Below, one piece after another: positions 49,649 through 57,020 of a DNA stretch of 64,000 nucleotides; the stretch's first letter is position 1; every line of letters begins with the position of its first letter. The position numbers and the translations under genes are program-made. This stretch comes from Cyanobacteria bacterium P01_D01_bin.156 (lineage in GTDB: Bacteria > Cyanobacteriota > Cyanobacteriia > Phormidesmidales > Phormidesmidaceae), in contig JBCCQQ010000004.1 in assembly GCA_039024555.1 (NCBI GenBank), forward strand, positions 32,001 through 96,000, in the 5' to 3' direction. The notes under the pieces were generated by a model. The model was not told where the DNA came from. It saw only the letters and a list, made by a program, of their open reading frames with translations, and made no database searches.

Positions 49649-51082
49649 TCAGCTACCAATGGACTTAACGGCCTGCTGAATAAACTGCTGTAGCATTTGG
49701 TCTCGGCGATTAAGCTGGTAATGTTTCTCCACAACGGCTTGCATACCGCCATCCCCCCAGCTCTGCTGATTCGCAAAATAATCTACAAAGCTTTTCCCCG
49801 CAATTCGAGTGAGGTAGGCGGCACTGGCCCCCTGCAAAAGTTTGCCTGCAACGGCGGTCGCTAAGTTTGCCTGCAGACCAACAGTTAAGAGTTTGAGGGC
49901 TCCTTTGACCAGACCTAAGCTTCCCATGGTTTTGGCAAGGGAAACAGCTAAGGTGCGAGCATCTTCGATGCTGACGGCAACACCATACACCTGCCCCAAC
50001 TCGACCACCATCTGAGTGTTAACAGCGGCAGTAGCCAGCATATCGACCACTGGCAGGGGCGTAGCAGCAAGCACCCCTGCACCAATCCACTGATAACGGT
50101 CGATAATGGTCTCGGCCTGCTGCTGTCGCTGTTGGCTAAGTACCTTTCGAGCTTCAAGACTCAGACGTTGGGACTGGAGCAATAGGTTGTTGGCAATCAG
50201 GTTACGGCCTTCGCTACGGAGAATGGTGATAATGCGATCGCTAAGCTCGCTAATATCTGGTGTAGGTTCATAGTTAGGATTAGCTGCGATCGCAACAATA
50301 TCTTGAGGCTGCATCCGCTGTTCCACCCGCTGCCGCAGACGGCCTAAAATCATCCCAATCTCATCATCAGCGTATAGATCCGCCTTGTTGAACACCAGCA
50401 AGGTGCGTTTACCCACCGACAGTAGCTGGAGCAAAATCTCATACTGAGCCCGGTGCAAATCGTTATCCACCACGTACAGCACCAGATCTGCCCGGGCAGC
50501 CAGCTCTCGACTAGGTTGGTCTATACTCCCCGCATCCAGCAATCCTGGGCTATCTGTCAAAATAATCTCTCCATCAATGGCTGGAATAGCCACCCGATAG
50601 TCACGGCGTTCGGTGGTGGTGCCCTTAGTCACCGCAGTATCCCCAACTATTTCCCCCATTAGCGCATTGGCGAGGGAAGTTTTACCCACCGACCCACTAC
50701 CCACAATCACAATATGGAGCTGTTGTTGCTCAAACGCTTGGGTCACTGTCTTGGCCCGCGCCACTAGAGCTTGTTTAGCCACTTCGTCTTCTATTTGGGT
50801 GAGCTGCTGGTCTAAGCTTTGCAGCTGAGCGACGGCGGCTTCATCGATGTTTTTTGGAACAGACGGCGGCTGGGTACGGGGTCGTAGAAACAACCAGCCA
50901 TAGTAGGCAATGGTGCCAACGGCCACCACCATGAGCAACACGATTACTGTCGTAATAGCCTGGGCTAACCAAGGATGAAGATTCGCTAGCCCAGCATACA
51001 GAGTCCCTAGGGTACTCACTAACCACAGCAGTATGCCTAGAAAGATTAGAACTGCGATCGCAACAAATAAAGGGCGCCTCAT
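49649..51082 (-). CDS. YcjF/DUF697-family GTP-binding membrane protein
   Basis: Two N-terminal TM helices; G1 GSGSVGKT, G3 DSPG and G4 NKAD; PLPVVD...MVVELGQVYG. Confidence 0.88.
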   Translation of the reverse strand: MRRPLFVAIAVLIFLGILLWLVSTLGTLYAGLANLHPWLAQAITTVIVLLMVVAVGTIAYYGWLFLRPRTQPPSVPKNIDEAAVAQLQSLDQQLTQIEDEVAKQALVARAKTVTQAFEQQQLHIVIVGSGSVGKTSLANALMGEIVGDTAVTKGTTTERRDYRVAIPAIDGEIILTDSPGLLDAGSIDQPSRELAARADLVLYVVDNDLHRAQYEILLQLLSVGKRTLLVFNKADLYADDEIGMILGRLRQRVEQRMQPQDIVAIAANPNYEPTPDISELSDRIITILRSEGRNLIANNLLLQSQRLSLEARKVLSQQRQQQAETIIDRYQWIGAGVLAATPLPVVDMLATAAVNTQMVVELGQVYGVAVSIEDARTLAVSLAKTMGSLGLVKGALKLLTVGLQANLATAVAGKLLQGASAAYLTRIAGKSFVDYFANQQSWGDGGMQAVVEKHYQLNRRDQMLQQFIQQAVKSIGS

Positions 51083-51197: not shown

Positions 51198-51710
51198 ATG
51201 GGTATATTTGATCAAGTCATGGGAGCCATCCAGGATCCCAATCGCGAAGCAAGCCTCGGTCAGCTGGGCCAAATTGTATCGATGGCGCAGCAGGTTTCCC
51301 AGGCTAGTAATGCCAACAGTTCAACAACTCAGCAAGCTGCCTCGATAGTCGGTGGCTTTGTCAAGTCAGCACTGCAGGAGAAACAACAGTCCCAGGGTCT
51401 AGATGCCGTTCTAGATCTAGTCCAGCAGGGTACAACGGATGGAGCTGGTGTACTACCTAAGCTATTCAGCCCTGCCCAGCAAAGCACTGTCGCTACTGCT
51501 GTGGCAGAGAAAACTGGCCTTGATGCGGCTCAAGTACAGTCAATGTTACCGATGGTAATTCCCATTGTGATGCAGTTTCTCAACCAGGGTGCTGCCAAAC
51601 CTGGCAGTCAAGCCCAAGGCAATCCATTGGTCAGCGCGTTTCTAGATGGTGACGGCGATGGTGATGTAGACATGGGCGACATACTCAAAATGGCCGGACG
51701 TTTTTTGTAG
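51198..51710 (+). CDS. DUF937-like protein with EF-hand-like tail
   Basis: MGIFDQVMGAI, AEKTGLDAAQVQSMLP and FLDGDGDGDVDMGD. Confidence 0.8.
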   Translation: MGIFDQVMGAIQDPNREASLGQLGQIVSMAQQVSQASNANSSTTQQAASIVGGFVKSALQEKQQSQGLDAVLDLVQQGTTDGAGVLPKLFSPAQQSTVATAVAEKTGLDAAQVQSMLPMVIPIVMQFLNQGAAKPGSQAQGNPLVSAFLDGDGDGDVDMGDILKMAGRFL

Positions 51711-51974: not shown

Positions 51975-52430
51975 ATGGTGGGTGGTAACAAAAATAGCAA
52001 TCGCTGGAACTGGCTAAGCGCTCAAAGCTTTTTACACGGCATCGATGGAGTTGAAACAATTGTTTCAAAACTGCTGAGTATTGCCATGTTAGTCGTGATT
52101 TTTGTGATCATGATTGACCTAGCCAAGTTTTTGGCTGTTGCACTACTCGAACCTAGCGCATCGGGTTTTTTCAAAAATACCCTGAGTGAGATTTTTGGCC
52201 TCTTCCTCAGTGTTTTAATTGCTCTAGAGATTTTAGAAAATATTACCGCCTACCTAAAAAAGCATGTGGTGCAGGTAGAACTGGTGATTGTTACTTCACT
52301 AACAGCAGTCGCTCGTAAGATCATCATTCTGGATCTAGAAAAGATTACTGGGGTTAGCCTAATCGGTCTAGCCATAGCGATCCTATCTCTTTCCATAAGT
52401 TATTGGATTGTGAGAAATATCCACAAATGA
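51975..52430 (+). CDS. Phosphate-starvation-inducible PsiE family protein
   Basis: IFGLFLSVLIALEILENITAYL...VELVIVTSLTAVARKIII; 4 TM helices. Confidence 0.88.
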   Translation: MVGGNKNSNRWNWLSAQSFLHGIDGVETIVSKLLSIAMLVVIFVIMIDLAKFLAVALLEPSASGFFKNTLSEIFGLFLSVLIALEILENITAYLKKHVVQVELVIVTSLTAVARKIIILDLEKITGVSLIGLAIAILSLSISYWIVRNIHK

Positions 52431-52447
52431 GATTGCTGTAGACAACA

Positions 52448-54943
52448 TTAACTCTCACGATATTGTTGTAATACCCAGCGACGAAATAGGGGAACAATAA
52501 TTCGCCAGTGAGATTTTTCTTCAGTTACCACATCGTGACGTGCTAGAGTTTGCAGCGCATTCAACACGTCTGGCTTCTTTAACTTTGTTTTACGGGCAAT
52601 AGCTTCGATAGGTAGCCCCGTAGGTTCATCGGCCAAGACCTTTAGGGCTGATTGCTGGTGTGGCGTATCCTGACCCGCCTGGTTCCAGACACCTGTGAAG
52701 TAGTAACGGCCTTTGCTATACAGGTCAGTGTTTTCGGTAACCTGCCACAGGTCGTCATGGGTAAATGTTGGCGGACGGTCGGTGTTTTGTTCGAAGCGTT
52801 GGTGGTTGTAGAGGCGCACGAGCTGGAAGCCCAGGAGCTGGGTGAGGTAAGGTTGGCCTGCGGTGAAGCTATAGATTTCGTCTAGGACGCCGGGGGCATA
52901 GTCGAGGGTGAAATCTGGGTTTGGGTTGGCGACGAGCTGGCGGGTGGCGGACTGGCTAAGGTAGTCAACGTGGATGGGGAGGACACTGGCGAAGAAGGGG
53001 TTGAAGTAGTCTTCGGTCATTTCTTCGAGGGTGTGGAGTCCGGCGAAGGCAAAGCCAATGTGAGGGCTGAGCTGAACCAGGCCGCGTAAGTACTTTATGA
53101 ACTCCGGGGTAAGGCTTTTATCTTTGATCAGTTCTTCAAGCTGTTCGAATTCATCTAGAGCAATGATTAAGCCTGTGCCGTTGAGGTGTTTAATGACATC
53201 TTGCAAGTACCGTTTGAAGGTGATTTCCGGTAAACGCAGTAGGTCATCATCTTTAGGAGCAGGCAGATCAACCACTTTAGCAATTGCGTCGCTGATGGTG
53301 ATCAGAACTTCGCCTGAGCCTTCGGTAACGTGACCAAGGGTGAGGAGATTCACATAAACAACTTTGGGATTGTTGCCGAGACATACTGAAAGATTTCGCA
53401 GGATAGAGGTTTTGCCCATGCGGCGATGGCCATAGAGCACCACGGACTGGAGCTGTTCACCCATGAGCCATAGTTCTTGAAGCTGTTTGAGGATGTCTTC
53501 ACGACCAACAAACAGATCGCCCTCTACGGGGTCGCCAGCAACGTAGGGGTTTGTAACTGGTTGACTGTAGTCCACTTCGCCTACATCCGCTGCTAATTCG
53601 AGAAAGTCATTCCGCCAACTTTTGGCAATGTCCAGAATGAGGTCTTTTTCAGCATTGGGTAAGTCATCGGGATGGTCCAGGATATTGACCAGGGCACCGA
53701 GGGCACGGTTTAGAGCTAGGGAACGGGTTGCACGAGAATAGCTTTGGAGCATGAGCTGGGCATTGTCTGCTGCATGACGGAGCTGGGCCATGGCTTGCCA
53801 AGTATCAGGCCGAAGAAGATGCTCCTTGGGAAGCTGGTGGTGGGCTAGGGCGGATTTTTGTTCGAGTGTTTTAGCATCCTGGGCTGTGGTCAGACAGCAG
53901 GCAAGCTGGTACATTTCTTCCCCATGGGGAATATGGCGAACCGTATCGAATGCTTCAGCTGCTCTAGATGGAGATTTATCATGGAGTAGCCAAAAACCAG
54001 CAGTCACAGACCGATAAGGTAAATCCAGTCGAAATGAGGAGTCAAATCGTTTTCTTAAGTTCCGTCTACCCGGCAATATGAATAAATTGTCAATAAACTC
54101 TTCTTTTAGCTTGTTGGTAAGGGAAGCTGATAAGTAACGTAGAACATTCCAGTCAAAAGGCTCTAAAGCTAAAATAGCCGTTCTCGAAAAGAGATTTTTA
54201 TCTGGCACTTTAGCTAAACTCTCTTCAAGGCTTTTCACAACAGGGATGAACTGTTGTGTATAGGCTAATAACTGATTTGTGTTGTAAATTCCTGTATCCC
54301 AATCATGGGATAACCAATGTTCTAGGCCTTTTTGAAGTCCTTTCCATGGAATGTAGGTAATGCGATCGCTAATTATCGGTCGATCATATTGGCCACCTAA
54401 CCCCAAGAAACTTACCATAGCCTCAGGACGAAGAACCGCAACGCCGAACGCAACGCCTAACGCAACGCCGAACGCAACGCCGAACGCAACGCCGAACGTA
54501 ACGCCGAACGCAACGCCTCCCGCAACGCCTCCCGCAACGCCGAACGCAACGCCTCCCGCAACGCCGAACGCAACGCCTCCCGCAACGCCGAACGCAACGC
54601 CTAACGCAACGCCGAACGCAACGCCTAACGCAACGTAAAACCAATTAATGGGAATCCCCAGTTCTGCCAACAAGATTGCTATTAAGGGCGGAGTAATAGT
54701 AGTCAATACCCCCCCCTGCAGCCAAAGATTTCGCTCATGTTTAGCTGTCTGAAACCATTGGAAGCGTTCTTGCCAAGTATCACAATCTCTCAATTGTTGC
54801 CCAATACCAAACTTGGTTTCGTACCAGCGCAGCGCCTGGGGGAAAAAGAACACCCAGTACAACAGCAATAAATAATCCAAAGGATTCCATAGGGAAAGAG
54901 GTTTTCGCCGTTTGGGAGCAAGATCTAATCTGGGTACTGCCAT
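52448..54943 (-). CDS. Membrane-associated STAND-like AAA+ ATPase with (GVAF)n repeat and C-terminal wHTH
   Basis: [16 protein letters not shown], Walker A GHRRMGKT, Walker [19 protein letters not shown] and a C-terminal winged helix (...VPLFRRW). Confidence 0.85.
54437..54635. repeat. 12-bp coding tandem repeat (CGCAACGCCGAA and variants), 16 full units plus 7 nt
   Basis: Units end in GAA, TAA or TCC. On the minus strand they encode [12 protein letters not shown]. Confidence 0.95.
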
Positions 54944-54948
54944 CGCAC

Positions 54949-56460
54949 CTATTCCTCTTGATACCTTGCATACAGCTCAAATCCACCCCGCACAACATCA
55001 CGGGGATTACCTCGACTATTTTGGATTAGTTGTTGTAGTTCTATTTCTGAGAACCATACTCCGGTCCCCTCCAGTCGCGTTCGAATAAATGTTTGAATCT
55101 CCTCCTCTGACCAGGGGGGCATCATCACCGGCTGAAACACCCCACCAATAGGCGACGTCATCAGCCCATCATGACTATCTGGAAACAAAATATCCAACGG
55201 TTTAGAGGCTGCCATCACCAATTTTAGCGGGGCTCTACTTCCCTCTGCTAAACCTCGTAGCTGAGAGAGTATTTGTTTTGTGAAATTCTCCCACTGCATT
55301 TTCTCAACTACATCTAACAGAAGAAGCGCTGGTTCCCTAGTCTGTAATTTTCTTGTCAGCGCAAAGCTTTTACAGGTTTCGATTTTGAGAAAATGGCAAA
55401 GCGCTTCGTAAAAATCATCCTCACTGTCAATTCCCCAATTAAAGTCGATATATACAGGCTCACGCTGAACAGCTAATGTGCTTAACGCATTACGTTCTAT
55501 CGCCTTGAGTAATGATGATTTTCCAATTTTGCGTGGCCCTACCAGTTCCACATTGGAGCCACTGTTTAGAAGAGCAAATATCTCTCGAAGCAAAGCTTTT
55601 CGCTCAAAAAATAGTTCAGGCTCTTCAATCCGCCCTTCAGGATAGCTAAATGGATTTGGTTGAACACCTGAACTGTCAATGACTGACGTTGGAATAGTTA
55701 TAATATTTGCCGATTGACTTTTCAATATTGCCTTAACTTCCTGTACTTCCTGAAGCAGTTGTTCCGTATTTTGGTCTGTAGATTTTGCATAGGTCAAAAG
55801 CGCTTGATCATTTTGGGCCAGACCTTTCATCAGCGACATCTGCACAAAATTCAACAGCACCTCATGCTCGCTTACCTGTTGAGCAAAGCATGCGTATACC
55901 TGGGTCGCCAATCGCTCCCTTAGCACCTCCCCATAGCAACCAGGTGCCATATCAGGTGCAACTGCTAATTGATTAGTAGCCGCTACCAATGGTGATATAG
56001 CATTTGACTGGGCTATTGCGACTACATCATCTAAACCAGCCAGGTTCAGTGCTGGCAAAGATACCTTATTTTGTTTTATCTCTCCGATTTGCCGCTGTAA
56101 ACGCTCTATGTATGCGTTGTACCAACTAACATCCTCCGCTTTTTCCTTTGGAGGGACTACCTGCCCACGATAAATTTGAGGGTTTGGACCAAGCAGCTGA
56201 TTCCGACAATCCTGAGCAATGTCCAATAGCGCCTGTTGGTACGATAACCACAACGCCTGAGTAACCTGTTCCGTTAACGGCGAACGATCCTGCTTGAGCT
56301 GCTGTATCAGCGACCATGGAGCCATCGCTACCGCATCGGCTCGGTTGCCCACTACTGCATCCAGCAATTTGCCAAGTTCTGTTTCTTGCCCAGACGCTTG
56401 GGCAACCAGATTTTTCCCGATGATCCCCACGGCCAAGACTATTAGGCTGTCGAGTGCCAA
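54949..56460 (-). CDS. STAND-like ATPase with an N-terminal helical domain of unknown family
   Basis: NPF...GRI..PELFFER, Walker A GPRKIGKS, Walker B LLLLDVVE and SRGNP. Probable TTG start at 56460 after GGAG (the ORF track start is 56571). Confidence 0.82.
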   Translation of the reverse strand: MALDSLIVLAVGIIGKNLVAQASGQETELGKLLDAVVGNRADAVAMAPWSLIQQLKQDRSPLTEQVTQALWLSYQQALLDIAQDCRNQLLGPNPQIYRGQVVPPKEKAEDVSWYNAYIERLQRQIGEIKQNKVSLPALNLAGLDDVVAIAQSNAISPLVAATNQLAVAPDMAPGCYGEVLRERLATQVYACFAQQVSEHEVLLNFVQMSLMKGLAQNDQALLTYAKSTDQNTEQLLQEVQEVKAILKSQSANIITIPTSVIDSSGVQPNPFSYPEGRIEEPELFFERKALLREIFALLNSGSNVELVGPRKIGKSSLLKAIERNALSTLAVQREPVYIDFNWGIDSEDDFYEALCHFLKIETCKSFALTRKLQTREPALLLLDVVEKMQWENFTKQILSQLRGLAEGSRAPLKLVMAASKPLDILFPDSHDGLMTSPIGGVFQPVMMPPWSEEEIQTFIRTRLEGTGVWFSEIELQQLIQNSRGNPRDVVRGGFELYARYQEE

Positions 56461-56672
56461 ACCACAACTCCATACATCACCGCCTATTAAGGTAACCCCA
56501 AAAAAGCAAGAATGCCGTCGATATGTACAGCTTGTAGTAGATGAAGTAACCTCATGCAACAAAAGTTGCAAAAACTTACTGAATCTAACACCAGACCCTA
56601 AAACTTTATGACAGTCGCGGTTTTAGTGAGCCCCCAACGATAGGATCTCAGCACAATCCTCATCCGCTAGTC

Positions 56673-57020
56673 ATGACCGAACAACTCACCCTCAATCTAG
56701 TTCAAGGTTCAGTGCAGTTTAGTTTTTCCGTAGCTGCAGCCCAAGAACTTAAAAGTACCCTGACCACACTAACCCAAACTCTAAAAGCTTCAGCAGCAGC
56801 TACCGTCGGCGCAGGCCGACCCAAGCCAGTCAAGCCCACCGAATACCGTCATACCGGGGACGTATTTTTAGAAATTTTCTGTAATCCAAACATCTGGCCT
56901 AGCCCCTTTGCTGCCAAGTTATTGGTAACTGTCCGAGACGACAAAATTCGCTTAACTACAGAGGCAGAACTCACCCGCATTATTGAAGATGTGAATCTGT
57001 ATCTGGAACAACACGGATAA
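56673..57020 (+). CDS. Conserved-type cyanobacterial hypothetical protein
   Basis: LTLNLVQGSVQF...VFLEIFCNPNIWPSPFAAK; a clean ORF convergent on secA. Confidence 0.8.
   Translation: MTEQLTLNLVQGSVQFSFSVAAAQELKSTLTTLTQTLKASAAATVGAGRPKPVKPTEYRHTGDVFLEIFCNPNIWPSPFAAKLLVTVRDDKIRLTTEAELTRIIEDVNLYLEQHG

Follow-up and report, generated by a model that had tools for sequence, protein, structure and literature searches.

A conserved, co-inherited pair of STAND-type NTPases in filamentous cyanobacteria, likely a split NLR-like conflict switch

Introduction

The subject of this work is a cassette of two genes for different ATPases, P1 and P2, that resemble nucleotide-binding leucine-rich repeat (NLR) proteins. 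We analyzed it in a marine filamentous cyanobacterium, Cyanobacteria bacterium P01_D01_bin.156, within a stretch of 64,000 nucleotides (contig JBCCQQ010000004.1, positions 32,001 to 96,000, forward strand), referred to as the window. Judged by sequence comparison, the closest described families are nSTAND1 for the core of P1 and ATPase_2 (PF01637) for the core of P2, and the closest system logic is that of the two-gene nSTAND2 operon; all three involve NTPases of the STAND type (signal transduction ATPases that have numerous domains) or their relatives. The statements attributed below to PMC8195603, PMC7159879, PMC6468293 and PMC6713354 draw on parts of these papers.

The nSTAND1 family (PF20703) groups NTPases from systems that are predicted to act against invaders (Kaur, Iyer, Burroughs and Aravind 2021, eLife, PMC8195603). 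P1 has a core resembling this family, whose N-terminus serves as a slot for effector-associated domains (EADs) or effectors such as TIR, caspase and trypsin (PMC8195603). In the published architectures covered by the parts of PMC8195603 used here, one long polypeptide carries the sensor at its C-terminus (+FGS, +BetaPropeller, +TM+BetaPropeller, +TPR, where TM denotes transmembrane), whereas P1 stops after its helical lid, has no winged helix or sensor and is paired with a second ATPase. nSTAND2 is a mobile two-gene operon with a STAND NTPase as the constant core of both products, for which the authors predict a hetero-multimer formed via arginine fingers (PMC8195603). Our cassette is likewise a two-gene unit with a STAND NTPase in each product, but nSTAND2 is another NTPase family with GT4 and other domains attached, and no membrane-anchored partner or glycine-zipper repeat is described for it in the parts of PMC8195603 used here. 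No nSTAND2 family was found among the Pfam matches of P1 and P2 at E ≤ 0.1, in a Pfam set whose inclusion of an nSTAND2 model was not checked. The archaeal Walker-type ATPases of the ATPase_2 family, represented by the solved structures 2qen and 2fna, have no known function and are soluble proteins of about 350 aa; compared with them, P2 has about 470 extra N-terminal residues that form a head, a hydrophobic helix, a repeat and a helical domain.

In the anti-phage STAND/NLR-like proteins Avs and bNACHT and in the NLRs of plants and animals the nucleotide-binding oligomerization domain (NOD) is not divided over two polypeptides as it is here. The cassette also differs from them in having no LRR, TPR or WD sensor repeats and in that one partner carries a long hydrophobic, predicted membrane-embedded stretch, and Pfam did not assign P1 or P2 to NACHT or NB-ARC at the sequence level. 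At the level of function, paired and helper NLRs and the ZAR1 resistosome provide a comparison. Kiwa and Zorya are two-gene defence systems in which a membrane-embedded constant component is coupled to a cytoplasmic effector, a concept like that of P1 and P2; however, they share no domains with these proteins, and neither was matched in PADLOC.

Here we report that P1 and P2 are a conserved, co-inherited pair of STAND-type NTPases, and we consider it likely, with a probability of about 0.6, that they form a split NLR-like conflict switch acting in immunity or abortive infection. An initial annotation, made from the DNA sequence alone, had proposed a conflict system with the membrane-embedded P2 as its effector. 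Its coupled accessory pair is retained in our analysis, while the effector role of P2 is not.

Results

Organization of the cassette

P1 and P2 are encoded by two minus-strand open reading frames (ORFs) that lie head to tail with a gap of 5 nt (54944-54948):

54949-56460, minus strand: P1 gene, 503 aa; helical N-terminal domain and nSTAND1-like NTPase made of a nucleotide-binding domain (NBD) and a helical domain (HD), without a winged helix
52448-54943, minus strand: P2 gene, 831 aa, ATG start; hydrophobic (predicted membrane) N-terminal part and STAND NTPase
54944-54957, minus strand: P1/P2 junction; GAGGA at 54957-54953 within the end of P1, P1 stop codon TAG at 54951-54949, P2 ATG at 54943

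The ORFs and the sequence agree with the initial annotation of two different minus-strand P-loop ATPases, 5 nt apart, with the second ribosome-binding site in the end of the first gene: GAGGA precedes the P2 ATG by 10 nt and belongs to the 3' end of P1. A simple consensus scan detected no promoter-like or terminator-like site at the junction. Throughout 52200-56800 the scan gave two promoter-like and six terminator-like matches, about the same as in shuffled sequence, and all of them were on the opposite strand or within coding sequence. The P1 start used here, TTG at 56460, is that of the database gene call (P0121) and was also the start in 7 of 13 aligned rows (window copy counted). The first TTG, at 56571, would give an alternative product of 540 aa, with 37 additional residues.

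Co-inheritance of P1 and P2

A scan for P2 relatives, with one genome per species, yielded at least 485 loci, and the best 80, all cyanobacterial by title, were examined. A P1-type ATPase ORF was found directly upstream on the same strand in 62 of the 65 loci that had at least 1200 nt of upstream sequence; the exceptions were L051, L071 and L096, and the other 15 loci were too short for the upstream partner to be judged. It should be noted that these loci are not independent, as the partnered loci include 26 syntenic ones of the Nostoc type, and L082 duplicates L083. Weaker P2-like matches, limited to the ATPase and the winged helix, occur without P1 and represent paralogues with other N-termini.

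When 151 genomes with a completeness of at least 90% were drawn evenly from the class, 15 P1-type matches were found in 14 of them, representing 11 of 84 genera. Twelve of these matches adjoin P2, one is about 2-3 kb away from it (G044) and the contigs of the other two are fragmented (G072, G103). Among 40 relatives, the pair was present in G013, G018, G023, G028 and G039, always adjacent and in the same order. In G023 (contig C8; L007, 16-3015) the two genes are fused, and a single frame (about 1000 aa) joins a TIR-like domain and the P1 ATPase to P2, the latter from approximately residue 327 and without its membrane region and repeat. The coupling of the two genes proposed initially is therefore upheld by the neighborhood survey, by the class matches and by the fusion, and homologs are mostly paired rather than single.

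A model of the complex between P2 200-831 and P1 262-503 had an interface score (ipSAE) of 0.67 in three runs, compared with 0.00 for the best of three controls. The runs shared at least 84% of contacts, and the predicted local distance difference test (pLDDT) value of the partner was at least 78. A mark of 0.67 was attained by 116 of 157 solved complexes and by 2 of 215 mismatched pairs, counts that are only rough here because own alignments were used. In the modelled interface, P1 399-410 packs against P2 507-516 and 598-604, such that the arginine-finger face of one AAA+-type domain is placed on the ATP site of the other; P1 R402 is nearly invariant, and P2 R507, R508, E598 and E600 are invariant. 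The model supports binding of P1 and P2 to each other, predicted to occur via their nucleotide-binding domains, but does not demonstrate it. The idea of a hetero-oligomer, which was part of the initial annotation, thus gains support from a modelled NBD-NBD interface that passes its controls.

Variable N-terminal slot of P1

In the 63 partner ORFs, the N-terminal slot of P1 contained TIR_2 in three cases (L092, L117, L119), CHAT in one (L115) and EAD1 in one (L118). The Leptothoe/Phormidesmis group (L043, L045-L049) has the large helical N-domain of the window type, and most Nostocales partners have small N-domains of about 110-135 aa that belong to no family. When 35 of the latter were searched against Pfam at E ≤ 0.05, no family was found in more than two members, and HTH (helix-turn-helix) matches were sporadic and weak. 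Precomputed Pfam annotations of database homologs of the P1 ATPase, taken irrespective of their gene neighbors, include trypsin, caspase, TIR, CHAT, EAD10 and some HTH families.

A constant core combined with a swappable death or adaptor domain is, according to Kaur et al., a signature of conflict systems (PMC7159879, PMC8195603). Because the slot is swapped for TIR, CHAT and EAD1 in relatives, P1 rather than P2 appears to be the output-bearing subunit, and it is likely that P1 carries the output and that P2 is a constant membrane partner. A variable N-terminus in the first protein was among the features to be looked for according to the initial annotation, and it was indeed observed. The same annotation regarded the membrane protein as the effector since no TIR or protease domain was visible; this argument is not supported, given the finding of TIR_2, CHAT and EAD1 in the P1 slot of confirmed pairs.

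Domain anatomy of P1

P1 was analyzed by an alignment of 13 sequences and a structure model (mean pLDDT 67.7):

55666-56460, minus strand: P1 residues 1-265; hydrophobic helix 1-20 and helical domain without a family match
54952-55665, minus strand: P1 residues 266-503; NBD and helical lid

Helices 55-210 of the N-domain were modelled at pLDDT 70-89, and helix 1-20 is hydrophobic by hydropathy. The N-terminal 265 aa had no Pfam match at E ≤ 10, and seven large P1-type N-domains searched at the same threshold gave only scattered, chance-level matches. In the alignment, the invariant residues of this domain are Arg, Tyr, Trp, Gly, Pro and hydrophobic residues, with no invariant Asp, Glu, His, Cys or Ser. 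A profile of seven N-domains returned P1 alone in its own genome (G000) at E ≤ 0.1, so that no second copy was detected there; being single-copy, the domain does not behave like an effector-associated adaptor domain. A word-indexed search identified about 11 database proteins that share it. One candidate, NNH2 (PF22734), came from an Atlas lead of 0.87 and was rejected, as the family hidden Markov model had no match in G000 and hhalign, run with 10 NNH2 sequences, gave a probability of 1.4%.

The ATPase part contains GPRKIGKSS as Walker A (308-316, nt 55513-55539), D383 as the Asp of Walker B and G484-N-P486 as the GxP motif. G308, G313-K314-S315, D383 and G484/P486 are invariant across the 13 sequences, and in a set of 27 sequences Walker A and the residues numbered there as D123 and P226 are invariant. 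R402 (nt 55255-55257) is conserved within the motif LRGLAEG. The residue following the Walker B Asp is Val in the window copy and its 88% relative, and Glu or Gly in the others. A Pfam scan of the 540-aa ORF gave sub-threshold nSTAND1 and AAA matches at 316-523, with 21.6 bits against nSTAND1 compared with the gathering cut-off of 27.1. The cut-off was reached by 46 of the 63 partner ORFs of relatives, which matched only positions ~10-240 of the 379 in the profile. Fold matches of P1 extended only over the NBD and lid of Cdc6/Orc1 (2qby chain residues 17-266). A ZAR1 fold match across P1 53-503, with a root-mean-square deviation of 15.5, is a lead only.

Because the protein stops 17 residues past GxP, P1 has no winged helix. 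P1 therefore contains the NBD and the HD with GxP of a STAND protein and lacks the winged helix of a complete NOD. In STAND proteins it is ordinarily this domain that holds the resting state. The initial description of P1, a helical N-domain that could not be recognized followed by a C-terminal ATPase, agrees with the Pfam results, the helical model and the Walker motifs.

Domain anatomy of P2

P2 was analyzed by an alignment of 24 family members and a structure model (mean pLDDT 71.8):

54809-54943, minus strand: P2 residues 1-45; most conserved segment outside the ATPase in the alignment
54428-54721, minus strand: P2 residues 75-172; hydrophobic helix 75-97, then (G-V-A-x)n glycine-zipper repeat at ~100-172
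53579-54346, minus strand: P2 residues 200-455; all-helical domain, pLDDT mostly 80-94
52451-53512, minus strand: P2 residues 478-831; complete STAND module, NBD-HD-winged helix

The head (1-45) has 18 invariant positions between P4 and Y41 and consists of a basic stretch followed by an aromatic/hydrophobic one. Residues 75-174 form a single unbroken hydrophobic stretch of about 100 residues by hydropathy. The helical domain at 200-455, for which there was no Pfam match, is in the model a candidate sensor or arm. A search of the Atlas with residues 196-462 had a best score of 0.76 and gave no lead.

The definitions of STAND motifs and domains were taken from PMC6468293 and PMC6713354. P2 has the hhGRExE-like motif FVGRED (478-483; F478, G480 and R481 invariant), Walker A GHRRMGKTS (505-513, nt 53405-53431), Walker B LIIALDEFE (592-600, nt 53144-53170) and, in the helical lid, the GxP motif G696-Q697-P698; Walker A, Walker B and all three residues of GxP are invariant in the 24 sequences. 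C-terminal to the NBD-HD there is a winged helix (~745-831, nt 52451-52711), placed as in STAND proteins. By these motifs, from the Walker A and B, hhGRExE-type and GxP signatures to the winged helix, P2 qualifies on sequence grounds as a STAND NTPase. It also matched Pfam ATPase_2 with 35.4 bits (cut-off 33.2) and HTH_IclR at 767-808, and a fold search with residues 469-831 matched Cdc6/Orc1 and 2fna. The fold searches effectively covered the ATPase parts of P1 and P2 only. A sequence-profile search of PDB with P2 and P1 gave nothing meaningful; the best matches were MscS (E 0.018), on a Gly/Ala-rich stretch, and ABC-type P-loops. Hydropathy, repeat analysis, Pfam and the model are all in accordance with the P2 layout described initially (hydrophobic segment, long repeat, helical region, ATPase and winged helix-turn-helix), the membrane location being predicted.

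Glycine-zipper repeat of P2

Tandem Repeats Finder detected a 12-nt array at 54437-54635 that encodes the repeat, with 16.6 tandem copies and 86% match. Within residues ~100-172 of the hydrophobic segment there are 16 overlapping GxxxG motifs, which defines the segment as a glycine zipper at the motif level; it was modelled as a helix with pLDDT below 50. Of 66 full-length P2 genes, 60 contain tandem arrays according to the same program. The best ones had a period of 12 or a multiple of it and were located in the same region of the gene, the copy number varied from about 2 to 40, and the usual unit was GGCGTGGCGnnn. The distance from one conserved anchor to the other, which could be parsed in 82 of 120 P2 homologs, ranged from 77 to about 240 residues with a median of 177; five parsed lengths above 300 may be errors. 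Lengths of the repeat segment differ mainly by multiples of 4 residues.

Assemblies often break at this repeat, and short matches to the P2 N-terminus are mostly 'partial' proteins at contig ends. A search for shorter stand-alone P2 N-termini returned mainly such contig-end partials. One marine-metagenome DNA run contains 0.96 of the words of the locus, as contigs, and its unitigs also break at the repeat, leaving 54465-54606 unbridged. One low-depth contig (2.87 versus ~16) loops back 178 nt inside the repeat, for which a longer allele, a related strain and an artefact of assembly are all possible explanations. Low-depth contigs also have clusters of substitutions at 52904-52967 (P2) and 56051-56313 (P1 N-domain). 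Together with the looping contig, these clusters may be co-occurring strain variants. On the opposite strand of the repeat, 54360-54638 (plus strand) is open for 92 codons as (A-T-P-N)n, which appears to be a consequence of the tandem repetition and not a gene.

Distribution and insertion site

More than 1238 P2 relatives were found, and the best 120 were mostly full length with 44-75% identity. The best matches were mainly from filamentous cyanobacteria; short, mostly partial matches were labelled Beggiatoa, Chloroflexota and others. The P2 family is annotated only as 'ATP-binding protein', and a genome search found no paralog of P1 or P2 in their own genome. In the class draw the pair was not found in 137 of the 151 genomes.

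In the window, the pair is flanked by psiE (PF06146, E 2e-33) on one side and by a conserved hypothetical gene of 115 aa, adjoining secA, on the other; the PF06146 match and the ORF map confirm this placement, given already in the initial annotation. The psiE/hypothetical junction (window 51975-57020; L145, L146, L148, L149, L150) is a variable site in the genus. It is empty in the congeners G008 (208 bp) and G010 (148 bp), it contains ABM and iron-containing alcohol dehydrogenase (Fe-ADH) genes in G002, and in G006 these two are joined by FIST and histidine kinase genes. In G013 the same four genes occur together with the pair, and the place of psiE on the far side is taken by a GGDEF/EAL gene; in the window the pair is alone. 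The neighbors in the window do not recur in the flanks of any of the 80 other loci. We conclude that the cassette is accessory and patchily distributed; the empty junctions in G008 and G010 and its presence in only 14 of the 151 class genomes speak against a pair that is core in all relatives, a case that would have counted against the initial annotation.

Identity between G000 and G013 is 96% for secA, 90% for the hypothetical gene, 76% for P2 and 42% for P1. The low value of P1 next to that of secA suggests that P1 has diverged very fast or has been replaced. No integrase or transposase was found among the flanking ORFs scanned with Pfam, which were a sample only.

Several relatives have either copies with in-frame stops or nothing but fragments in different frames (G039:C1:1212006-1215725, G018:C489, G028:C69, G129:C99, G015:C5:6829-8818, G024:C1:3749520-3750263); G015 and G024 belong to those with fragments. 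Such degraded copies suggest decay and turnover of the cassette.

Neighboring genes

In 31 loci a divergent ORF of about 186 aa is located 86-443 nt upstream of the P1-type gene (for example L054, 4062-4622, minus strand). Its product has an N-terminal hydrophobic segment resembling a signal anchor and no Pfam match, and there is no homolog in the window. The hosts are mainly Nostocales, with a Leptolyngbyaceae metagenome-assembled genome, Fischerella, Stigonema and Rhizonema in addition. This ORF could be a third component or could reflect just local synteny.

A gene for an EAD1 + GUN4 protein lies just downstream of the pair in L082 (9892-10830, minus strand) and four other loci, and in L059 an NB-ARC/TPR STAND protein is encoded downstream of the pair. 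Conflict-type genes thus sometimes cluster with it. In the window, 49649-51082 (minus strand) encodes a DUF697 membrane GTPase (MMR_HSR1 + DUF697) and 51198-51710 (plus strand) a DUF937 protein; both genes are conserved and syntenic in congeners and lie outside the cassette.

Search for known defence systems

PADLOC-DB 2.0 gave no system match, only weak local P-loop matches, the best being PDC-S27 for P2 (E 1.3e-5) and PDC-S60 for P1 (E 6.7e-5). No PADLOC or NCBIfam system and no characterised housekeeping complex was matched, in line with the uncharacterised system proposed initially. The pair was not described in the literature searched, which included part of the supplement of PMC8195603. 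Parts of P1- and P2-family proteins may already be named, as precomputed annotations place PF26273 on two P2-family proteins (P0028, P0247) and PF26355 on five P1-family proteins (P0137, P0138, P0171-P0173).

Discussion

Our data can be combined in the following scheme. P2 would reside in the cytoplasmic membrane and act as a sensor or nucleator, detecting a trigger through either the membrane part or the helical domain; the trigger may be a disturbance of the envelope or membrane during infection. The ATP-bound, open NOD of P2 would then recruit P1, with the R402 face of P1 docking on the Walker A/B face of P2. The resulting hetero-oligomers would cluster the N-domains of P1 and thereby activate them. 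In the window copy, the output would probably be a helical domain that looks non-enzymatic, starts with a hydrophobic helix and acts at the membrane beside P2 and not as an enzyme. Strains would differ in the membrane part of P2 owing to the slippage-prone repeat. What triggers the switch, what the window copy has as its output and what the repeat does are all inferred. A more far-reaching version, which we offer as tentative and would not expect to hold in full, is that P2 is a membrane sentinel for events such as phage genome entry and, by way of an ATP-dependent hetero-oligomer, templates swappable P1 effector ATPases with TIR, CHAT, protease or, in the window, membrane-active helical domains. 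In this version the coding 12-nt minisatellite would render the glycine zipper hypervariable in length and serve as a contingency locus, by which the firing threshold is adjusted or phage inhibitors are escaped.

Several observations weigh against a split conflict switch. In 26 Nostoc-type loci the pair shares one syntenic site between ABC-transporter genes, which implies that it is stably inherited in that clade and not visibly mobile. No PADLOC or NCBIfam defence model was matched beyond a weak, P-loop level. Defence-like neighbors are few: 15 of 121 flanking ORFs, in 8 of 21 loci, matched PADLOC at E ≤ 1e-8, a count that has no baseline and was not used as evidence. It refers to 121 of 150 ORFs, from 234 selected; the 29 ORFs left out were all those of L057, L064 and L083, four of L091, small ORFs beside P1 and one that had already been scanned. 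The small, familyless N-domains that prevail in Nostocales are as compatible with a regulatory output as with an immune one. A C-terminal sensor domain is absent from both proteins, which makes the sensing step a guess. A repeat that changes by 4 residues at a time does not readily fit a constant number of membrane crossings, which leaves its membrane topology unexplained. Finally, AAA+/ORC-type interfaces are abundant in solved structures, and the complex model may have passed due to likeness to these rather than binding.

A different assignment of roles, in which the repeat of P2 oligomerises to a membrane pore upon STAND switching and the N-terminus of P1 is a sensor or regulator, is in our opinion improbable. 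It would agree with the usual STAND layout, where the N-terminal extension is the effector, as the extension of P2 is wholly N-terminal and its membrane part could serve in this way. The 16 overlapping GxxxG motifs in a hydrophobic stretch of about 100 residues would also suit a pore, and the window P1 N-domain has no invariant acidic residue, His, Cys or Ser that would suggest an enzyme. However, the domains found in the P1 slot, TIR_2, CHAT and EAD1 in pairs and trypsin and caspase in homologs, are elsewhere outputs or adaptors and not sensors. In addition, the G023 fusion retains both ATPases without the membrane region, and this version cannot use a P2 pore; the low pLDDT of the modelled repeat gives the pore no structural support either.

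It is also possible, though we consider it unlikely, that the pair functions in signalling unrelated to immunity, with the membrane-anchored STAND ATPase sensing a cue from the envelope or the environment and, together with its partner, regulating transcription or another process in the manner of MalT or AfsR. The winged helix of P2 might be seen in this light, but it is an integral part of every STAND module in the parts of PMC6468293 used here and for that reason is not necessarily DNA-binding. Cell-death outputs are instead indicated by the TIR, CHAT, caspase, trypsin and EAD variants, and a patchy distribution over 11 of 84 genera, an insertion site that is empty in congeners and a P1 that is only 42% identical where secA is 96% identical do not suggest ordinary signalling. 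Even less can be said for a housekeeping membrane or secretion factor tied to secA or psiE, which we regard as very improbable: its sole support is the position between psiE and the gene beside secA, yet in G008 and G010 the pair is missing and psiE directly adjoins the hypothetical gene, the psiE/secA-side neighbors are absent beside the pair in all 80 other loci, and most of the near-complete class genomes were found to have no pair.

We therefore favor the split conflict switch. STAND/NLR switches are normally single polypeptides composed of an effector, a NOD and a sensor, and the cassette divides the NOD between two proteins. There is a division of labour between them, in that the output domain is on a minimal NBD-HD subunit and the other subunit has a hydrophobic stretch of about 100 residues with a repeat of variable length. 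If our interpretation is true, paired or helper NLRs would have a counterpart in bacteria, the pair would exemplify an NLR-like protein that senses at the membrane, and it would offer a simple two-gene test bed for the activation of TIR, CHAT and helical death domains by NOD hetero-oligomers.

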